A DNA stretch of 62,476 nt, filler included, from Stramenopiles sp. TOSAG23-6 (lineage: Eukaryota): assembly GCA_900128565.1 (NCBI GenBank). It is 30 parts of 30 records of this genome, joined end to end, with 100 filler letters (N's around TTAATTAATTAA, not from the genome) between each part and the next. Parts side by side here need not be neighbours in the genome. Positions count along the whole stretch, not along the records: positions 6,308 to 8,308 come from LT638388.1; positions 8,409 to 10,408 come from LT638389.1; 28 more parts are not named here. One strand, written 5' to 3'. Made by a program: the position numbers and the translations under genes. A model generated the notes under the pieces. It was not told where the DNA came from, did not search any database, and saw nothing but the letters and a program-made list of their open reading frames with translations. Below are positions 6,374-55,070 of the stretch, one piece after another (within the stretch, counting starts at the first letter, position 1; the number at the start of each line of letters is the position of its first letter).

Positions 6374-8205
6374 GGTAGTGTAATGAAAGACGTAGTTTTA
6401 GAAGGTAAACTAAAGGGAACTCCTGATGTTTTGTCGTCTATAAGCGATTCCACAAATCTTGAAATAGAATCCTGTCAAGTACGTTTTCATCATGAAAATT
6501 TAATTTTTTTTTTTTTGGTAAAAAAAATTTCGTACCTAACAATTTTTTTTTTACCGAAAAAAAAAAACAAAAAAAAAATATTTTTTCACAATACAATCTT
6601 CATCTGAAAATAAAAGTCATTCTATTGTCAATGATAAAAAATCTTCTTCTGATACAGTAATTTGTGATACTAAAAGTCGCCGAGTAAAACGTTCGTGTGT
6701 CTCTAATGCTGAAGCTGGACGACTAGCGCTTGCGAAGGCCAAAGCTATGATGCCTAAAGTAGAGCCTCGTATGTTTTTATTTTCATTCCAAAAACATTTT
6801 TTCAATTTTTTTTTATAGTACATTTTGTACCTAAGAAAAAATCAAATTTTCGAAATATTTTTTACGATACATGTAGTTCAAAGGCTCAACGTTTAGTGGA
6901 TGCGAGAAAAGCTGATATTACTACATCTTGGAAACATTACAAAAATAGGTTTTTAGAAATTTCAAATAATCGGAAATTCAAATGTACGTTTTTTTCATTA
7001 ATTTCAAATTTATTTATTTTTTTTTGAAAAGTTTGTACCTAACGATTTTTTTTTTACGAAAAAAAAAAAAAATATTTTTTCACAATACATACACTCCTCT
7101 TGGTAATAGTTATCCCTCATCTTTACGTTCTATGGGACAGTGGCAACGGATGAATGTGTTTCGAATCGAATTGGCAGCAATGCAATATCAACTTTGCTCT
7201 ATTGGAGCTCCGGCTGCAAGTTATTTGCCGTCTTTAGAAGAAAATACTACTTCAAACATTTCTGAAAACCCTAACCCTAATCAAAACAAAAATGCTTCTG
7301 AAGACGAAGAAGCAGTTGAAAAGTCATGGAAAAAATTTCATTTATTTATGAATAAATGCAGTACGTGGCGAGATATTTTACCTATGCTTGAAGAATTAGA
7401 GATGAGTGCTGTGAAATTCTCAGGGGAAAATGAATTGGATGTATGTTTTATTTTCTTTCAAATTCGAATTTTTTTTTCATACGAAATTTTGTACCTAACA
7501 AATTTTTTAAGATTTTTTTTTGAAATATTTTTCCAAAATACATTCTGATAGTCTTGGTGAATTACCTTTGAATGTTAGTCTTTCTATAATGTATGTTTTC
7601 ATTTGAATTAATTTTTTTTTTAGTTTTTCGTACGAAATTTTGTACCTAGCGATTTTTTTTTAAATTTTCGTACATCGTAAAAACTCGTAAAAAATAATAT
7701 GTACCTAACAAATAAATTTTTCTAAAGTAAAACATTTGCACAATACATTTCTGATTTAAGTAAGAATGGTCCAATTTTAGATCTGGAGGATGACGACGCT
7801 GAAGAATTAGAAGCACAAGGCTCATTATCAAATCAAGTAAGTCTAGGCTATGGTTTTGGATTTGGGTATGGCTGTGGCCCTTATTCTCAAGACTGGCAGA
7901 GTGTTCAGGGTATTCGTATCCCTCCTCCAAATGTTCCATCTTCTCAAATCGTCTGTGACTTTCCCCGTTTATGGCGAACACGTAGAGATCGACAGCGTTG
8001 GTGGGCATTTCTTCAATTAGGAAGGAAAAACACAAATGGTGCCGCATATGCTCTTTTTTGTCTAACATCGGCAATTACCCGGTATATTCAAGCTTTGTCG
8101 CACTACCGTCATCAGAAAGGTTTAGAGGAAAATAGTATAGTAACATATAAAAGTGATAAAAGTCGTGGTCTAATCCGAAAAAGATCTACGAAGACACTGG
8201 ATTAT
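6374..8205 (+). CDS. Multi-exon nuclear protein fragment, possibly WHIM/DDT-type chromatin protein (exons 6374-6478, 6597-6768, 6873-6983, 7091-7440, 7544-7590, 7749-8205)
   Basis: Six exons join in frame when five non-AG introns (1 GT-AA, 4 GT-AT) are removed. LWRTRRDRQRWWAFLQ...AAYALFCL is WHIM3-like (tentative). Confidence 0.6.
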
Positions 8206-8495
8206 GTATGTTTTATTTTTTTTTTATTTTGAATTATTTTTTTTCGTACGAAATTTCGTACCTAACAAATTTAAGTTTTTTTTTTTGAAATATTTTTCCA
8301 AAATACATNNNNNNNNNNNNNNNNNNNNNNNNNNNNNNNNNNNNNNNNNNNNTTAATTAATTAANNNNNNNNNNNNNNNNNNNNNNNNNNNNNNNNNNNN
8401 NNNNNNNNTTTATTTTATTTTTTTTTTTTTTGGTAAAAAAATTTTGTACCTAACAATTTTTTTTAAATTTTTTTTGAAATATTTTTCCAAAATTT

Positions 8496-10190
8496 ATTAA
8501 TGGCAACATCAGGTACAAGCCAAGCTCATAAATATAGGCAGTTAATTCTTGAGCAACAAAATAAAGAATATTTACGAAACGAAAATAGTTTTTCTCATAC
8601 TGGTAACAATAATAATGTTGAATTAGGTATGAAACATTTTGGTACAAATTCAAAAAATTCAAAAAATTCAAAAAATTCAAAAAATTCAAAAATTGTCAAG
8701 CATCAACCACCTAACCCTAACCCTAATGAACACAATCAACCAATGAGACAATTACATCTGATATATAATATGATTGAGTTGGGGGAAAGATTAAGTGGTA
8801 CATTTTCATTATGAATTTTTTACTTAAATTTTTTTTTTTTGGTTTTCATACGAAATTTTGTACCTAACAAATTTCGAATTTTTTTTTTTACAATACATGT
8901 GCTTGGATGGGAGATAGTACTACAATGATTTTACATACAACTACAAATAAACCTAACCCTAACAGTACTGTGTTATCTTCAAGGCATCTTGTAACCCCTA
9001 ACCCTAATCTTGTAACACAATGGAAAAACACAATTTTAAAATTTTCATATCACCCCTCAAACCCTAACCCTACCTCAGATGACCCCAACCCTAATGGTAG
9101 TACTAAATATCATTCAGATAAATTTGTCATTTCTGGAAGTGGATGTTCTATATGGAGAGGAAAGCATGTATATTATCTCTCTTATATTTTTTTTCAATTT
9201 TTTGTCTCAATTTTTTATTTTTTGAAAATTTCAATTTTTTTTTTTTTTTAATTTTTTTAAATTTTTATTTTTTTAATTTTTTTTTTCGTACGAAATTTTG
9301 TACCTAACAAAAAAAAAAATAAATATATTTTTCACAAAATATATACCATTTACAATTACAGGACAATTTTTCCCAGAATCAAGTAAAATGATTATAAAAA
9401 AACGTCATTCCACATTATACCATAACACGTGTCAATATATTGGACGACTTGATTTGAAGACAATCATATGTATGTTTTTTTTCAATTTTTTTTCAATTTT
9501 TTTTTCAATTTTTTTTTCAATTTTTTTTTCAATTTTTTTTTTAGGGTTAGGGTTATACAAACACAATATCGAATTTTATCTATAGTTTCACAATACATTT
9601 ATTTTGAAACGACAAACCGTGAAGAATTAGAAAGTCATACTCAAGCAAAATACAAACCTGCTCCTTCTGCAAAACAAGAGCGAAAAGAATTAAAAGCAGC
9701 TTTGTCAAGATCTAACTTTAACTTGGGTGTATGTTTTTTTTTAAATTTTTTTAAAATTTTTTTTTTTTTTTTTTTTTTGTACGAAAATTTGTACCTAACA
9801 AAAAAAATTAAAATGTTCAAAATATTTTCATACAAAATATCCCCATAAGACGGCCTATACGACAGATTCCCATAGTGCTCATGTAGAGTTTGGCAAGGAA
9901 CATTATGTACGTTACTATTTATATGTATTAGTTTTTGTTTTCATATATTTATTTTTTGTTAAAAAAAAAAAAAAAATGTAATGTAATGTAATACAAAATT
10001 TCATACCTAACAAAAAAAAATATTGTTCTTGACATATTTTAATACATTTTATTCTCCACCTGACATTGAGGAACAAAAACGAAGAAAAAAATTATTGGCC
10101 TCATCCAATTTCGAATTTGGATATCAACCAATTGATTATAAATCGAGTAATCCACATCAAAACACTTCTTTTCACAGGAAAATTGTATAG
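8496..10190 (+). CDS. Hypothetical multi-exon coding region(s)
   Basis: Exons separated by family introns (8798-8898, 9729-9840); repeated SNFxL/FG..Y motif; some junctions unresolved. Confidence 0.45.
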
Positions 10191-16974: not shown

Positions 16975-18690
16975 TGTCTTTACATTTTTTGATTGTCTGT
17001 CAATGGCTCAAGATATGAATACAGCCCAAAGAAAAATGGGTTCTCATGTTCGTTACCCGGGTCACGCTAGTCGAATTGCTCTAACATTAAATATTTTATT
17101 GTCAAATACAATTGCAATGATTTCATCATCATGTACGTTTTTTTTTTTTTTTTTTTTTCGGTAAAAAAAACGAATTTATTTTTTTCGTACGAAATTTTGT
17201 ACCTAACAATTTTTTTTTTTTTTTTTTTCGGTAAAAAAAAAATCGAATTTTTTTTTTATAGTAAATTTTGTACCTAACAATTTTTTTTAGATTTTTTTTT
17301 AAATATGTTTCCAAAATACATTTGCTATTTCGTTTATTAAAAATATTGAATATATTGCTAATGATATTGATGAAGAAAAAACACGAAATCAAGACGACAT
17401 GCAAAACAATGCAGATAATGTGTTGTATGTTGAATGTAGTAATACACTTACATCATATTGTTATAGAGAATTAACGTATAGAAAAAAAATGATGATGTCT
17501 CATAACCCTAACCCTAACCCTAAGAAAAATAAAAAAATTAAAAAAATTTCGACTGTACCAAAACAACAAATGAAAAAATTGAATTCACGAAATCGTAATC
17601 TTAAAAAGTCGGTGAATTCTGAGGTTAAAAAAAAAGAAACAGAAAAGTGGTGTCGAATTCAAATCTGGAAACATGAAATAGAGATAAACCAAAAACAACA
17701 AAAACAACAAAAACAACAAAAACAACAACAAAAACAACAAAACAAAAAAAACAAAAAAAAACAATCAAAAAAAGGAAAAAAAAAATCTCGAAATTCTTTA
17801 GGTACAGAATTTACTACAAAAAAATATTTTTCAAAATATTCTACCGTCAACGATTCAATTTGGTACAATATTGATTCATGTATACGGAATTTCCTAGATG
17901 GTATCTATAAAAGAAATGGTGCTCAAGGCTGGGGAATTGGCCGAGGTGGTTTTTTTGGAGGTAGTGTATGTTGTAGTATAATATTTCAATTTTTTTTTTC
18001 ATTTTTTTTTTGTATGAAATTTTTTTTAGAAAATCAAAAATTTCATTTTTTTTTTTTCAATTTTTTTTTGTATGAAATGTTGTACCTAAACAAAAATTTC
18101 ATTTTTTTTTTTCAATTTTTTTTTGTATGAAATTTTGTACCTAACATTTATCTACAATTTCAAATAGTATCCTAATAATTTATGTCGCCACGTTTGACTT
18201 ACCGATTTCGTGTAAAATTGGTAATCATAAATTGTATAATTTTGACAAAGCTGCTATACAATACGCAAATAGTACTATCAGTTGTCCTAACCCTAACCCT
18301 ACTCAAAAAGACCAACTGCAATATACCTCCGAAAGTAATGCAAAACAACTTTTTAATGTCATATGTTCACCAATTTGGGACTATAACGTATTATTTCATT
18401 ATTCATTTCCAATATTACAATTTTTTTTTTTTTTTTTTTTTTCATACGAAATTTTGTACTTAACAAAAAAAAAATTAAAAAAAAAAAAATATTTTTCACA
18501 ATTTATGCTCGTGAAAAAGGACGAAATCTTTGTTTTGCATATAAACGTTTAGAGTATTCAGAAACTGCATTACAATATAGTTTTTATATTCCTCTTCATC
18601 GTAATTTGGCACATGCGTTAAAATCCTTGTTATGTCGATGCAAAAACGAAAAATATGCGACTTTTATGATTCGTCATTTATCAAGAGTTT
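16975..18690 (+). CDS. Hypothetical multi-exon protein fragment
   Basis: Coding-like segments between family introns; no domain recognised. Confidence 0.4.
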
Positions 18691-29634: not shown

Positions 29635-31248
29635 ATGAGTTCTGATGATATATCAGCTGTGTATCACAACAAAACCCATGAAGAATGTGTTCCTACCCCG
29701 GCAGAGCTCGCGATGAAGAATGGCTCTGGTATTGGTGACATGGAAGACATGGTAAATGGCCTTGACCTAGGCCCTGACGTTAGTCGTGGTTCTCGCCCAC
29801 CAATGGTACTCAATCGCGTTGTTTCCAAGCGACGTGCACAACGTAGAAAAAACAGTAATAATAGGGAAGTAGAATCAAAAAATAACGAAAATGTATCTGA
29901 ATTATCTAATTTGGAGTCTCCAGTGAAAAGTGAAAAAACCTCGGTTATACCCGGAACTCAATCAATCTGGGTAAAGACGTATGGTTGTTCCCATAACATC
30001 AGTGACAGTGAATACATGTCAGGAATGCTTGATTCTTATGGATATCGTATCGTTGAAGATAAAAGCTCTGCAGATCTTTGGCTTATTAATAGCTGTACTG
30101 TAAAGGATCCTTCGGAAAGCGCTTTTGTTAATTTAGTGGAAAGAGGAGCTAAACTAAACAAGGGTGTTGTTGTGGCAGGTTGTGTACCCCAAGGTGATGA
30201 AAATGTACGAGGTCTTGAAGATGTCAGTGTTGTTGGTGTTAGCCAAATTGATCGGGTGGTGGAAGTTGTTGAAGAAACTTTAAAAGGTAATACTGTCCGC
30301 CTGCTCGCGAAGAAGTCACTTCCCCGCCTCGATTTACCAAAAATTCGTCGTGATAATCTCATTGAAATTATTCCCTTATCAACTGGTTGTCTCGGTGCAT
30401 GTACATACTGCAAAACAAAACATGCTCGTGGAGTATTAGGTTCTTACACAATTGAAACTATTGTTAATCGGGCTCGTGTGGCTATTGATGAAGGTGTTGG
30501 TGAAATATGGCTTTCATCTGAAGATACTGGTGCATATGTATGTGTTCAACCCTAACCACTAGTACCCCTAACCACTTCAAATTTCGATTTTTTTTTTTTT
30601 CAAAATCATGTCTCTAACGAGTTTTATTTGAGTTGAAATATGTTCCAAAATTACATGGTCGTGATATTGGAACAAGTCTTCCTTCGCTACTTAATGCACT
30701 CATCGAACTCCTACCTATTGGAGGAAATACGATGCTCAGAGTTGGAATGACAAATGTATGTTTTATTTTTTTTTTGTTTTCGAAAAAAAAAAAATCGAAT
30801 TTATTTTTCGTACGAAATTTTGTACCTAACAAATTTTCTAAATTTTTTTGAAATATTTTTCCAAAATGCATCCGCCTTTTATTCTTGATCATTTAGATGA
30901 AATTGCGGACGCTTTAAATCATCCTCAAGTATTTTCATTTCTTCATGTTCCTGTCCAATCTGCTAGCGATAATGTTCTTCGTGGGATGAATCGTGAATAT
31001 ACAAGAGATGAGTTTTGTCGCGTTGTAGACTTTTTACGCCGACGGGTCCCGGGTATCGTCATTGCGACAGATATTATTTGTGGCTTTCCTGGAGAGACGG
31101 ATGTTGATTGGTTAGATACACTCAGACTTGTTAAGCGATATGAGTTTCCTATATTAAACATCTCACAATTTTATCCACGACCAGGAACGCCAGCCGCTCG
31201 AATGAAGCGCGTGAGAACTCAATTAGTCAAAGCGCGATCTCGAGAATT
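29635..31248 (+). CDS. CDKAL1: tRNA methylthiotransferase CDKAL1; exons 29635-30537, 30657-30755, 30872-31248
   Basis: TYGCSHN, radical-SAM [54 protein letters not shown]. Confidence 0.95.
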
Positions 31249-33578: not shown

Positions 33579-34662
33579 GAGAGCAGCACAACAAAAGCTA
33601 AATGATGGTCTTGAGGCAATGGATGCTTTACGAGCGAGGAGAGCCTTTGAAAAAAAAGACAGAGAAGCAAGAGAAAGTACATTTTTAGTATGAATTTCAT
33701 TTTTTTTTTTTGAAAATTTTGTACCTAACATTTTTAGTATGAATTTCAATTTTTTTTTTTTTTTTAAAATTTTTTTATTTCAAAAAAAAATTTTGAAAAT
33801 TTTTTCCGTACGTAATTTTGTACCTAACAAATTTTTAGTATGAATTTAATTTTTTTTTCACAATACATGGGAATTGCGTGAAGCGAGGGAACGTAAACAG
33901 CGTATAGATGACATGCAAGCAGCAAGAGGCATTCAAGCGTTAGCAGCAGCTCGACGGCAAAAAAGAATTATTCAAGATCAAAGAGAAACATTTCACCGAA
34001 ATTATCAAGCTCAAGCTGAGCAGCGGGAGTATGTTTTTTTTTTTGAAAAAAAAATTTTTTTTTAGAAAAAAAAAAAAAAAAAAAATTTTAAAAAAAATTT
34101 TAAATTTTTTTTTTGGTTTTTTTTTAGTAAATTTTCAAAATACATGCAGATTCGATTAGTGGAAGAAGCAAAACAGAATTTTAGGGAGCAAAATCGTGAT
34201 GATATTCTTGCCCAGGTACAAGAAAAAGAAGAAAAGAGAAAACAAGCTCAAAAACGTTATATGTTCGTTTTATTTTTCTTGAATTTCGAATTTAATTTTT
34301 TTCGTACGAAAATTTGTACCTAACAATTTTTTTTTTATAGAAAATTTTGAAATATTTTCAAAAAATACATCAAGGAGGGGCATGAAAATGTTCGACGACG
34401 TGAGCGAGAACTGGAAGATGTGAATAAAATACAACAACAAAAGATTGAGTTCTTACGCTCTAAAGGTGTTCCAGACGCATACATGTACTTTTTTAATTTT
34501 AATTTTAATTTTTTTTTTTTTTTTTTTTTTTCGTACGAAATTTTGTACCTAACGATTTTTTTTACACTTTGGACATTTTTTTAATTTTACAGGAGTGATA
34601 TAATCAAATATGATGCACAAAAGGTCATGATGGACGACTATAAAAGAGGAGGCAGACGGTAA
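33579..34662 (+). CDS. CFAP45: Cilia- and flagella-associated protein 45, 3' exons (33579-33676, 33869-34028, 34146-34262, 34371-34484, 34593-34662)
   Basis: DALRARRAFE...KEG...KIEFLRSKGVPDAY matches the CFAP45 C-terminus; three GT-AT introns and one GT-AG intron. Confidence 0.8.
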
Positions 34663-46140: not shown

Positions 46141-47826
46141 CGAACTTTCGATCACATGACTGAAGATAATAAGAATTTGCAGGATCTGCGATATATAATG
46201 CATCAATGAATAAACCTGCTGCACGTACAGCTGCACAACACGAATTCCATTGAAGATTTCCAATATGTTTTGTGAAAAAAATTCTACAATTTTCTTTTTT
46301 TTGTTAGGTACGAAATTTCATAGTAAAATACAAAAAAAAAAAAAAAAAAAAAAAAACCTAAAATTCGTTAGGTACAAAATTTCGTACAAAAAACAACAAA
46401 CACCTTGACCAGCAAATCCAACATAGAGAATATTTGATTGTTTTGATTTGCAAAATCTATCATAAAAATGATCCGTAGCTGCGAAAACTTCTGTGAATAT
46501 TTCTTCCCGTCCTAACCCTAACCCTAACCCTAATGAAGTTTCATTTTTATGTTTGTTTTTTTCTATGCTATTTTGAATACTATAATTTTGATATAAAGTC
46601 TCATTTACATTATTATCCAGGTTTGTTGATGTAGGGTTAGGGTTATTCCATGCAATACCTAGACGTCTTTTGGAGTTTCGTAATGCAGCTTTATGTTCAA
46701 AGATATTTTGTTTTGTTTTTTTTGTAAGTTAGGGTTAGGTTTAAAAAAAATTCAAAAAAAATATTTCATGAAAAAAAATATTTCATGAAAATATATATAT
46801 ATATATATATATAGTAGGGTTAGGTTTTTTTTGGTATATATGTGTGGAAAGAAAACGTACCAGCCTTTTTCATATTAAAATAATTGCAACTCAAACCTAA
46901 ATTTGTTAATTTTGAAAGTTTAGAAAATATTCCATCATTTAATATGTCTATATCTTTTAAAAAATTCATTTGCAAATATAATGATTTAAGTTTCACTAAT
47001 TTTGATAGAGACTGAGGAAGAGCACATAACATATATTGTGAAAAAATATTATTATTATTATTTTTTTTTTTTGGAAAAAAAAAATATTTGTTAGGTACGA
47101 AATTTCGTACGAAAAAAAAAACCGAGTAAAAACATTAAAAAATTCAAAAAAATAAAACATACTGATTATTATGAGCATCGATTTTTTCTAATAAAACACA
47201 ATTTCCAATTTCATTTGGTAATGCCCTAATTAAATTTCCATAAATATGTAATTCACGTAACATTTTTAATTGACCAATTTCAGCAGGTATGTCCTTTAGC
47301 TTATTATCTTCAAGATGTAAAATAGATAAAAGAGTTAATTTTGATATAGAAACATAATTAACAGATGTGTCTAAGCCAACTACTACTGTTGTACTAGGGA
47401 TATTTGAGATTGTAGTGTTGTTTTGATTTTTTTGATTTTTTTGAATTTTTTGAATTTTTTGAATTTTTTGATTTTTTTGATTTTTTTGAATATTTAAATG
47501 TTCAATCTTATTTGATGCTAAATGCAAAACTTTTAATGTTTTTTTCTGATATAATATATTATTTGGTATTTTCTTGAAATTATTCCATGAAGCAAGGAGG
47601 CATTGAACATTATGGCAGTTTTTCAATAATACAAGTATTGTGAAAAAATATTTCAAAAAAAAATCTTAAAAAATTCGTTAGGTACGAAATTTCGTATGAA
47701 ACTAAAAAAAAAAAATTAAATTAGAAATTCATATAAAACATACAAGCGGTGTATCCTGTGCGTTACCTTCCATTTCGAGTACTTTCAAAGAACGTTTTGC
47801 ATAGTACTTTTCTGTTTTGAGAAGAA
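46141..47826 (-). CDS. Multi-exon LRR protein with an additional C-terminal domain
   Basis: LHLEDNKLKDIPAEIGQLKMLRELHIYGN; introns 47633-47743 (GT-TT) and 47031-47162 (GT-AT). Confidence 0.7.
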
Positions 47827-50234: not shown

Positions 50235-50781
50235 AAAAAAAAATGAAAACATACATGATCCATATGAATACTACGAATATCTTCAAGACAATCAACTACA
50301 TGATCCGTATCATTACTACGAATATCTATAAGAAATGGTACACATGTCTTCAAGCAATCTCCTAAATCTAGTTCAATATTTGTCACTGGGACATAATTTT
50401 CACATTCTTTTTTTTTTCTTTTTGAAAATCTCCGGGATGTATTTTGGAAAAATATTTCAAACAAAATTCGTTAGGTACAAACTTTCGTACTGAAAATAAA
50501 TTCGATTTTTTTGTAAAAAAAAAAAATAAAACATACATGTCTTTCCTGCCTGAAAATTTATTTCGACTTTTTCAGAATTGTTGCATTTATCTTTTTTTTT
50601 CTCGTCATCAAAACGAATTTTTGAAAGACTTAACTTAATGCTATTATTTGTTGAGGACGATGAAAGACGCCATGTAATACCACGTGTCATTGGGGTTAAT
50701 AGTATGAGTTCTTTATCACCATTCCCGTATACATTATGTAGAAGTATGTTTACAATTTGAAATTTGTTAGGTATGAAAACA

Positions 50782-50812
<31 letters not shown>

Positions 50813-52088
50813 ACGAAAAAAAAAAAAAAAAAAAAAATTGAAATGAATTTTGAACTAAATTTTGAAAACGTACAAACAATTTGATGTTTTTGTTCTGAAA
50901 CTATAAATCGAAGAACAATACCCGGATACCATTCATTATCTTCCGGCCACAGTAATTCAACTTCTTTGCCTAATAACATCCTGATGTACATAGCTTTATT
51001 CAATGTATGTGTATTTGATATGCTCAATGAATCCACACTTTGATCGATTGAGAAATCAATCATTGGTTTGATAGGTTTTGAATTATTTCCCAATGCTGGC
51101 ATATTCTTATTATCAGAAATATTCTTATTATCAGAAATATTGTTTTTACTAATGATAGAATCAATATTACATTGGTTTGTAATTTGTGGAAACTTTGGAA
51201 AACGTTTTTGTTTCCATTCTAGAAGATTTTCTGATTTAGTTTCCTTTGCAAAACTAGTATTATTTCGTGAAATAGGCGATTCTATCTCTATAGTAGAATC
51301 ATTTGTTTCTTCAGCAGTAGTATTCATTGTTGACTCATTAATTGTAGTATTCATTGTTGACTCATTAATTGTAGTATTCATCGTTGACTCATTAATTGTA
51401 GAATTCATTGTTGACTCATTAATTGTAGTATTCATCGTTGACTCATTAATTGTAGTATTCATCGTTGACTCATTAATTGTAGAATTCATCGTTGACTCAT
51501 TTATTGTAGAATTCATTGTTGACTCATTAATTGTATTTATGGTTACAGCTGCAGCTAAAAAATCTTTTCCAAGTTTGTCCCATGAAAAGTCCATTGACTC
51601 ACANCCAGTATAATAATCTATAATTGCATCTAAACAACTGCGTGGCGCGTGTGATGTAGGATGTAATAAATTTGTCCCGTGCAATTTTGTATTTTTCATT
51701 GAACTCAACCGCTTTGAAATGTGTTCCTTCTCAATTTCATTCATTTCATTTTCAAATTTCTGAATTTCAGAATGTTTCATCAATTTCTTTGCATTTGACA
51801 AAGCAATTCGAATCGATTGATGTATACCATACAATCCACCAGGATAATCGTGTTCTGCACCAGGAGGTAACTGTGATAAAAATCGAGCTTCCAGTAACAA
51901 ACCTGGTCCAAAGTAGGGATATTTCAATCTGAGCATTTTCACGAGCTCAAGTCCAGCGGAAGTACATTTTAGTACAGCTAATAATCGACACATGTTCACC
52001 AGACAATTTAAATTTCCAGGGCTGATGCGCAGACCTTGAGTAAACGCATAGCGAGCAAGAGGAAAACGTTGTAGAGTGAAAGCAACAC
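50235..52088 (-). CDS. CABIN1/HIR3-like TPR protein with an inserted Tudor domain
   Basis: FPLARYAFTQGLRISPGNLNCL and SWDKLGKDFL resemble the CABIN1 N-terminus; Tudor GKEVELLWPEDNEWYPG...HQIV|YGNGDKE spans intron 50729-50873. Confidence 0.6.
51317..51535 (-). repeat. 27-nt coding minisatellite (T/S)TINESTMN, about 8 copies
   Basis: Seen directly in the sequence and ORF translation. Confidence 0.9.
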
Positions 52089-52338: not shown

Positions 52339-54024
52339 ATTACACGAATTCCCGCCTCATTTAAGAACTAGAACATTATTGAATTTACACAAAAGTCTAA
52401 TTTTACAAGTCCCCTTTTTTAATGAGTGTTTGTTTTCATTACTAAAAATGTTTTTTTTTTTTGGTTTTTTATAGTAAATTTTGTACCTAACAATTTTTTT
52501 TTTTTTGGTAAAATTTTTTTTGAAATATATTTTTTTTTCATAGTAAATTTTGTACCTAACAATTTTTTTTTTACAATATTTTTAAACAATGTAGGTGATG
52601 AAAGTTTCATTCGTGAAGTCGTAAATTGTCTTGAATTACAAGTTGCGTTACCTGGTACAACAATTTATAATTGTGGTGAAATTGGAGCAGATATGTAATT
52701 TATAACAAAATTGAATTTACGTTTGATTTTTTTTTTTTTTTTCATAGTAAATTTCATACCTAACAAAAAAAAAATTCAAAAAATGTAAAACAAAATTGAT
52801 TTTTTTTTTTCATACGAAATTTCATACCTAACCAAAACAAAAATTCAAAAATATTGTTTCACACTGAATGTATTTTGTTCAAAATGGATGTGTAAAATTA
52901 TTAGTCGGTCGAGCTCATCAAAATGTATGTTTTATTTTTTCTTTACACAAAAAATTCGATTTTTTTTTTTTGGTTTTATACGAAATTTTTACCTAACAAA
53001 TTTTCAAAAAATTTTTTTGAAATATTTTTCCAAAATACATCGCTCTTCATCACGTAAGCTTAACCCTAACCCTAAACATGATACAACGAATAACACAAAT
53101 GAAGATGAGTCTAGTTATGTGACAAATGAGGATACATCGTCGATTTCTATTGACTCTAGTATGTTTTTTTNAAANTNGAANTTTTTTTTTTTTNGNTTTT
53201 TTATAAAAATTTTGTACCTAACAAAATTATTTTTTTTTTTGAAAATATTTTTCTACAATACAAATTCAGATGATTTGTGGAATGTGAATACAAAAAAAGG
53301 AAATTCGTATCAAGCTCACACAAGTAAAAATAAAACAAATAAACAAAAAGTAAAAAAAGTTAAACGAAAATCGACATTAAATTATAGTACTAGTGTACAT
53401 GCAAAAGACAAAAATGGTACAAACAATAATACGAAAAAAAAAAGATATTCAGAAAAACGAAAACGTCAAAAGTATAAAAAAACAAATGTTTTTAGTGTGT
53501 TACGAGCAGGTGCATGTATGTTTTCAATGTTTTTGTTTCAAAATATGATGTTGCGTGTCTAACAAAAAAAAATTTAAAAAAAAATTTAAAAAAAAAAAAA
53601 AATTTAAAAAAAATTTAAAAAAAAAATTTAAAAAAAAAAACAAATATTTAAAAAAATAATATAACCCTAACCCTAATATACTTTTACAATACATATTTTG
53701 GTGAGGTTGAAGTTCTCCTTCGCAATGTTCGTCGAATTTGTTCTGCAGAAGCAGTCTCAATGACAGAATATTATGTACGTTTTTTTTTTTTAATTTATTT
53801 TTTGTACGAAATTTTGTACCTAACAATTTTATTTTGAAATTTTTTTTTCATACGAAATTTTGTACCTAACAATTTTTTTTTTGAAATTTATTTTTCAAAA
53901 TACATGGAATTCGACAACATCGGTTAAAACATATGCTTTTAAATTTTCCTGAAATTGCAACACAAATGAAATTCGAAGCCTTAACAAAAGTTCGTGATTT
54001 AATACGTTCGATTTATTGGAGAAT
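52339..54024 (+). CDS. Cyclic-nucleotide-binding (CNG/HCN/EAG-type) channel, C-linker and CNBD exons
   Basis: VPFFNE|CDESFIREVV...GEIGAD|MYFVQNG...LRAGA|YFGEVEVL...RRICSAEA; six complete introns (1 AG, 4 AT, 1 AA). Confidence 0.85.
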
Positions 54025-54409: not shown

Positions 54410-55070
54410 AATGCTCTGAAATCCTGGGAAAAGTTGGTCCATAGTACGAAACAATACAAAGCAAAAACAACATGTGAAACAACAGAAAAACACAACCCTA
54501 ACCCAACTTTATGTAGTACTAACCCTAACCCTAATGAAAATATAAGAATTCATGTTGCTGATTTTTTGCCTTGGGTTCCTCAAGGAACATGTATATTTTA
54601 TTTAAATTTGAAATTTAAATTTTTATTTAAATTTGAAATTTAAATTTGAAATTTGAAATTTAAATTGAATTTTTTTTTTTTTTTTACGGAAAAAAAAAAA
54701 TTTTGTACCTAACAATTTTTTTTAGATTTTTTTTGAAATATTTTTCTAAAATACATGGGCAAGCGAACCGCCAACACCATGGTTACACAAAGTACCGATT
54801 ATTAGTGTTACAACAAATACAAATACAAATACAAACACGAAATCAAAAAAATCAGAAAAATCAGAAAAATCAAAAAAATCAAAAAAGTTTAAAAAGTCAA
54901 TTCATGTGGTTATTGATGGTGTTGCTTTTCAAAAACTCACAACGCATCGTGGAATAACTCGACTTTGGTCCTGCTTAATACCACGACTCTCGTATTGGTT
55001 AAATGAAAGAAATCATCGAATGACTATCTTACAAAGAACTGGTATGTCTCTCTTTATGTTTTGAATTTTG

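Follow-up and report, generated by a model that had tools for sequence, protein, structure and literature searches.

Introner-like introns with mostly non-AG acceptors, a conserved terminal box and a matching U1 snRNA in a stramenopile genome

Introduction

Introns derived from mobile elements, introns with non-AG acceptors and U1 snRNAs adapted to unusual donors have all been described in other organisms. Introners of the Chrysochromulina type are repeated at unrelated loci, are flanked by locus-specific target-site duplications and take their acceptors from the duplication, which, in the accessible part of the survey, is 4 bp long and often holds the core GY/AG nucleotides (10.1101/2022.06.06.494994). 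In Fritillaria borealis and F. pellucida, U2-type introns that are processed by the major spliceosome most often end in AT, and a YAY-like triplet is found both at the exon end and at the intron end; according to the accessible text of that study, the main non-canonical classes begin with AG, U2AF occurs in duplicate, and strong complementarity between U1 and the donors is missing (PMC13326754). The 5' end of U1 in Entamoeba and Mastigamoeba is changed such that it complements an atypical donor, and the portion of the report at hand describes no non-AG acceptors (10.1101/2022.06.08.495308). In yeast lacking Prp18, the most favorable non-G intron ends are CAU and UAU, use of such ends is aided by poly(U), and pairing between U(-1) and G(+1) has been put forward, as far as the accessible part of the paper goes (PMC10711555). 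Duplication-derived introner acceptors, AT-ending U2 introns and U1 co-evolution in Entamoeba are, by these partly accessible sources, already known.

Here we describe an intron family of Stramenopiles sp. TOSAG23-6 (GenBank assembly GCA_900128565.1; 21.1 Mb in 6236 contigs), starting from a stretch of 62,476 nucleotides (hereafter, the window) that is a chain of contigs of about 2 kb joined by N spacers. The family resembles the Chrysochromulina-type introners in being repeated at unrelated loci, in its locus-specific duplication and in the derivation of the acceptor from that duplication, but its duplication spans 2 bp instead of 4 bp, and most acceptors are AT, although TT, GT, TG and AA are also accepted (compared with the accessible part of 10.1101/2022.06.06.494994). 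As in Fritillaria, AT is the commonest 3' end and the YAY-like triplet recurs at both ends; in contrast to the Fritillaria system, so far as the available text describes it, the donors are GT in 106 of 111 introns (in a set called with a donor profile that favours GT), U1 matches them, and the introns carry a long conserved terminal box (PMC13326754). For U2AF, this incomplete assembly yielded one U2AF65-like gene and no U2AF35. The altered U1 recalls Entamoeba and Mastigamoeba, with the difference that U1 position 9 here faces the exon's last base, within the same AT that is copied at the acceptor (10.1101/2022.06.08.495308, partial text). Compared with yeast lacking Prp18, a mutant phenotype that concerns minor alternative sites in the portion of the paper at hand, the non-AG acceptor is here the main and precise site (PMC10711555).

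What distinguishes the family is the combination of retained GT donors, a long terminal box and a matching U1; the system is real and unusual. A literature search, mainly of openly accessible articles, found no description of it in a stramenopile; the family table of the introner survey could nevertheless hold this family. Few signals in splicing are more conserved than the 3' AG. A lineage that cuts at AT, TT, GT or TG under the direction of an upstream box, with a U1 matching the same shift, is a natural test of dispensable AG checks and of mutual adaptation between introners and the spliceosome, and gene prediction based on AG will not work for marine protists of this abundant type.

Results and discussion

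The intron family and its member at 8206-8308

Introns were called in the window and in loci of its own genome using CTAAY as an anchor together with a donor profile (exon bases ignored) and an acceptor profile (last two intron bases ignored). The search yielded 148 distinct calls, 117 of which could be tested for the reading frame, set independently on either side of each intron by codon usage; the frame was kept in 111 (the chance expectation being one third) and not kept in 6. The 31 untestable and 6 frame-failing calls were dropped from all counts based on the 111 introns, 18 of which lie in the window; the results of a previous round of 110 calls were no different. The set is biased to consensus-like copies and, because the box profile itself served to call the acceptors, the box conservation reported below is partly circular. 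The branch region shows a mean column identity of 89% across the family, which occupies many unrelated loci. The best named relatives of a CDKAL1 gene in the window come mostly from oomycetes, which fits a stramenopile.

The member that attracted attention is a 103-nt GT...AT intron at 8206..8308 (+ strand), with boundaries from the family profile. Its donor site (8203..8213, +; exon -3 to intron +8), which includes the exon end AT, is complementary to the modified U1 5' end discussed below. A 16-nt palindrome, with a 6-bp stem and a 4-nt loop, is perfect in this copy (8246..8261, +) and adjoins CTAAC (8262-8266, +), as the sequence-only reading of this region had claimed. The branch-site box TACCTAAC covers 8259..8266 (+), with 8265 as the putative branch A. 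A second, imperfect inverted repeat at 8282..8303 (+) is no more stable than its shuffled versions (-1.6 kcal/mol, z +0.33). The terminal box, a T-run followed by CAMAATAY (8293..8306, +), is defined by column conservation and by an RNA junction elsewhere, with the cut 2 nt past the box; the element terminates in ...ATACAT, 42 nt from CTAAC. The acceptor AT (8307..8308, +) is, judging from a test at the family level, likely to be one of two copies of a duplicated 2-bp target site, the 5' copy lying at 8204-8205. The contig stops at 8308, the last base of the intron, so that the downstream exon cannot be seen. An Rfam search of the window produced 0 hits.

Acceptors follow a terminal box and do not require AG

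Across the 111 frame-confirmed introns, the 3' end consists of a T-run followed by C(-10), A(-9), M, A, A, T, A and Y(-3), after which come two bases that vary. An A is found at -9 in 109 introns, and at -7 and at -6 in 108; the final dinucleotide is AT in 89, AG in 8, TT in 5, GT in 4, AA in 2, and AC, TG and GG in one each, with T as the last base in 98, G in 10, A in 2 and C in one. The suggestion that AG recognition has been replaced is borne out to the extent that AG is not required: it ends 8 of 111 introns, nearby AGs are skipped, and RNA documents a GT..TG junction. YAG was passed over by 18 of the 103 non-AG introns, and the family does not follow the YAG acceptor pattern of U2-type introns.

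Homologue profiles fix the lengths of both CDKAL1 introns while leaving the register free. Intron 1 (30538..30656, +) is 119 nt long, with 38 nt between CTAAC and the acceptor, and skips two AGs; intron 2 (30756..30871, +) is 116 nt long, with a spacing of 41 nt. For a Rab intron ending in TT and for two of the five introns of a gene for a UxaA-family dehydratase, the best profile junction coincides with the box end; among the rest of the UxaA introns, one has its best junction 6 nt beyond the box end and two give no information. Comparison by eye with paralogues or with the consensus bears out the junctions in HSP70 and gamma-tubulin, and at the sirtuin junction the homologues differ by two residues.

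Contigs from four metatranscriptome runs were aligned to a locus that we take, from its sequence, to encode ARP2 (L164), and all RNA support comes from this locus, outside the window. At 2467-2828, a GT..TG junction that cannot slide (run X6; one 151-nt contig, depth 2) falls on the base predicted beforehand from the box and skips a T-run followed by CAG 5 nt upstream. A GT..AG junction at 1993-2182 (runs X2 and X6, from two studies) skips a TAG 17 nt upstream, and another GT..AG junction is seen at 1348-1501 (run X4). The sole contig compatible with a GT..AT junction on this locus is about 80% identical and slides by 4, and none of the near-identical RNA contigs on it crosses a GT..AT junction. 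Most of the locus is without exon cover, and the deep cover of A/T runs is repeat noise; for the CDKAL1 contig, the matching RNA runs had small word shares (0.04-0.08). A slid register in which the introns would read NN..AC is ruled out by the RNA junction; visual inspection of the junctions in the gamma-tubulin and GTPase genes leads to the same rejection.

These data bear directly on the concern that the non-AG ends are artefacts of assembly or annotation at which no splicing takes place. Chimeric joins across the intron repeat do exist, and the RNA support is thin, but the frame is kept in 111 of 117 introns, lengths are fixed by homologues, and a GT..TG junction is present in RNA; we regard an artefact as extremely unlikely.

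The 145-nt intron at 50729..50873 (- strand) had been presented as a case in which the acceptor is chosen in spite of a deviating end sequence, passing over TACTT and TACAT in favor of AATGTAT, as the Tudor motif HQIVYGNGD was said to require. The first two ends indeed run into stop codons, and with AATGTAT the frame is preserved, but this end is not unique, in-frame ends 3 or 6 nt away being equally open. Nor is the end deviant: its last ten bases match the terminal box at all positions except -4. A Pfam search with the two exon open reading frames beside this intron gave no match.

Pairing of the 3' end with U1, U2, U4, U5 or U6 was no better than that of shuffled sequences. The branch 13-mer pairs best with U4 (-9.0 compared with -7.0 for shuffled sequences), which we take to be chance.

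The hairpins are probably features of the element rather than a conserved module

The palindrome next to CTAAC and the second stem before the acceptor had been proposed to form a conserved 3' module. In this rival scheme, two hairpins would set the 3' site, one of them presenting the branch box and the other bringing the acceptor to the active site. The perfect palindrome does fold well by itself (-5.4 kcal/mol, z -3.8 for the copy at 8246-8261). It is hardly conserved, however, being perfect in 4 of the 75 branch elements of the window (a TTTT variant accounts for 14 of the 75) and in 3 of the 111 frame-confirmed introns of the window and its genome; all six pairs are intact in 36 of 111 copies. 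It is missing ahead of CTAAC in CDKAL1 intron 1 and broken in the RNA-verified GT..TG intron of the ARP2 locus. An A-run and a T-run of the latter intron could pair. Covariation was tested by pair counts against shuffles (112 aligned rows, 62 of them distinct), and paired cells amounted to 67.7% compared with 68.3% in the shuffled alignments, with 481 of 500 shuffles reaching the observed covariation score. Of the two arms, the 3' one hardly varies (TAC in 106-110 of 111) and the 5' one has drifted (G as its first base in 56), a one-sided conservation that is consistent with a sequence signal at the branch site.

The second stem has somewhat more in its favor. It is indeed perfect at 34345-34363, within a family intron (34263..34370, +) whose acceptor lies 46 nt past CTAAC, but this is the only perfect instance in the window and among the 111 introns. 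In 85 of 111 copies, the sequence allows a stem of at least 5 bp around a TAT centered near -17, the region from -28 to -6 has a median z of -1.5 at 20 C, and the pairs -22/-11 (G-C in 37 copies, A-T in 34) and -24/-8 covary. The family, however, comprises two subfamilies marked by base -8, and within them the signal at -22/-11 is lost (p 1.0 and 0.44), so that the covariation amounts to subfamily linkage; the linkage of base -11 extends to donor positions at a distance of about 90 nt. The predicted local pairing has a median probability of 0.03-0.07 and exceeds 0.5 in 26-29 copies, and the terminal box is equally conserved in the 56 copies with the 5' arm of this hairpin and in the 55 without it. 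A weak A-U stem may form here, and nothing points to it being needed. With hairpin 1 largely refuted on these grounds, we consider it unlikely that paired hairpins set the 3' site; the palindromes are best explained as inherited features of the element that are dispensable for site choice.

Spacing between the branch site and the acceptor is loose

The distance from CTAAC to the acceptor had been described as near-fixed, at about 35-45 nt. Across the 111 introns it ranges from 30 to 80 nt (median 41) and is bimodal, with peaks at 33-35 and 40-44; 67 introns fall in the proposed interval, but 27 are shorter and 17 are longer. The spacings do keep, for the most part, to a loose range of about 30-50 nt: 105 of the 111 are 30-49 nt, none is below 30, the tail reaches 59 and 80, and the RNA-verified introns of the ARP2 locus with CTAAC have spacings of 46, 38 and 36 nt. 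In the window, the range is illustrated by introns at 8798..8898 (+; 30 nt, without the GAAATAT arm), 47031..47162 (-; 59 nt) and 6479..6596 (+; 56 nt, ending in AA after an exon end AA).

A fixed-distance ruler running from the branch point would find support in this clustering, but it sits poorly with the bimodality and the tail, and HAT triplets occur upstream of the called site in 111 of 111 introns and again within 20 nt downstream in 78, so that a 20-nt window cannot set a cut with single-base precision. When stems are subtracted, the effective distance is 9-40 nt with a standard deviation of 6.4, compared with 6.9 for the raw distance; in the absence of such compression and of stem covariation, the introns do not behave as in the yeast effective-distance model, in which structure shortens the path from branch site to acceptor. 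Natural variants in the length from CTAAC to the box already point against the ruler, which we deem very unlikely. The module and the ruler fail the tests that had been set for them in advance, covariation being absent or attributable to linkage and the distances being broad and bimodal, and they need not come first in follow-up work.

A modified U1 beside ordinary recognition sequences in U2, U5 and U6

The U5, U2, U1 and U4 genes lie head to tail within 640 bp (L003:9-645, G000:C1146), with a second copy on C6122 and U6 located elsewhere. The U1 match scores 54 bits, compared with the Rfam gathering cut-off of 69.5 (E 1e-12), and its identity is backed by the snRNA cluster. Its departures from the Rfam consensus lie at positions 2, 5 and 9, which face donor +7 T, donor +4 Y and exon -1 T, respectively. 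It pairs with 10.1 of 11 donor bases, as against 7.4 for the consensus U1 (dG -9.5 compared with -1.9). U1 is changed to match the family donors, the exonic T included. No other U1 was found in the incomplete assembly, where the three exact matches to the standard U1 5' end are at the chance level (2 in the control).

By contrast with U1, the branch-recognition sequence of U2, loop 1 of U5 and the ACAGAGA box of U6 match the Rfam consensus. The donors are of the GTAYGT type and are paired by U1, and U2, U4, U5 and U6 are all present, as befits U2-type introns. The introns do not conform to the U12 type (AT-AC): the GTAYGT donors depart from the U12-type donor consensus, the GT..TG junction cannot slide, and the incomplete assembly contains no match to U12 or U6atac.

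Among the proteins, the region of Prp8 corresponding to human residues 1268-1766, which contains the 3'-site region, is highly conserved and ordinary, with no feature that would account for the altered acceptors, and Slu7 is present. The single U2AF65-like gene (L046:1108-3069, -) encodes two N-terminal RRMs, both RRM1-like by eye, followed by a C-terminal UHM. Searches of the assembly for U2AF35, SF1 and Prp18 found none, which is uninformative because the same assembly is without recognizable beta-tubulin or EF-1alpha; a single pattern match for U2AF35 proved to lie out of frame within another gene.

A more radical interpretation is that the AG rule has been dropped throughout the genome, with a box-reading protein cutting two bases on, whatever the dinucleotide, U1 rewired so that the exon-end signal is AT, the AG-checking factors U2AF35 and Prp18 lost or altered, and the 3'-site region of Prp8 and U6 staying ordinary. 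We put this combination forward as a tentative possibility only; were it true, any insertion of the element would be a ready intron. The distribution of last bases fits the U(-1)/G(+1) chemistry proposed for yeast without Prp18, and duplication of AT alone would also give mostly T.

Target-site duplications point to a transposon-like origin

The locus-specific duplication test used in the introner survey (10.1101/2022.06.06.494994, partial text) asks for agreement between the exon end and the intron end at individual loci. Here, 9 of the 22 non-AT acceptors copy the last two bases of the exon (1.1 expected) and 13 do not, and the agreement is limited to positions -1 and -2. We infer a 2-bp target-site duplication, mostly AT, the 3' copy of which is the acceptor. 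The locus-specific match and the GTAT/ATAC ends together argue for an element akin to DNA transposons, and the recurrence of many similar introns at unrelated loci, along with the locus-specific duplication, places the family among introners. The conservation of the box could mirror the needs of a transposase instead of those of splicing.

At the intron repeat, the assembly has fused exons that belong to different genes, in L096/L099 and L149/L150 (a CCT gene joined to gamma-tubulin) and in window contigs generally. These are probably mis-joins, and recombination between copies is possible; such chimeric joins would weaken the duplication signal, not create it. Two further contigs (L042 and L145) have inverted duplicated ends, which are typical of amplification chimeras.

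In the consensus, the first four bases of the element complement positions -6 to -3, after which a mismatch follows; in the accessible part of the introner survey, a terminal inverted repeat of at least 6 nt is optional (10.1101/2022.06.06.494994). This complementarity raises the alternative that the ends of the element pair with each other as a terminal inverted repeat and thereby deliver the 3' end. The pairing probability does exceed 0.5 in 26-30 of 104 whole-intron folds, and two pairs show weak trends (p 0.08 and 0.06), but the median probability is at most 0.02, and donor +4 is a C opposite A in 39 of 111 introns, without compensation. Furthermore, the donor must be held by U1 and then by U6. 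Delivery of the acceptor by end pairing thus appears quite unlikely.

A joint account of acceptor choice

Taken together, we consider it probable that a single account covers the introner, the modified U1 and the cut at the terminal box. The region 8241-8308 would be the 3' half of an introner of about 100 nt, a transposon-like element turned into an intron of the major spliceosome. The element would start with GTAY and end with ATAY, and would sit between 2-bp target-site duplications that are mostly AT. Splicing would take out the element together with one copy of the duplication, so that the acceptor would be whatever was duplicated. Pairing of the modified U1 with the donor would extend to the exonic AT. 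The branch would form at CTAAC, and the 3' cut would fall 2 nt past the terminal box, anywhere about 30-50 nt from the branch. The second step would tolerate U or G as the last base, by extension from the yeast work.

The reader of the box would most likely be a protein. The dedicated factor, which the sequence-only reading had listed as an RNA-binding option beside a ruler or structure, fits best as a factor that reads sequence, but no box-reading factor was found.

Genes with and without the family intron and unusual copies

The long open frames seen for two CCT subunits, EF-2, one HSP70, alpha-tubulin and Prp8 are without the family intron. These genes, seen in part, sit on L095, L097, L111, L131, L148 and L075 and are probably highly expressed. 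The ARP2 gene, by contrast, contains at least 6 introns. The UxaA-family dehydratase gene (L038:1-3200, +) contains five family introns; its product is about 30-36% identical to the best relatives, and those with a named organism are bacterial.

Telomere-like CCCTAA repeats occur inside coding sequence in the window, for example, at 8711-8725, 46512-46535 and 54498-54535, where they are read as Asn-Pro repeats.

Several copies are unusual in structure. At least two tandem branch boxes are present in the window introns at 7643-7745, 17200-17321, 33677-33868 and 53775-53905, and look as if the 3' half had been duplicated or a nested copy were present. Family introns with odd donors (GA, AT and GC) were found at L038:1584-1674 (+), L016:8961-9046 (+) and L024:3380-3475 (+), and the one with the GA donor shows a 7-nt repeat across both junctions.
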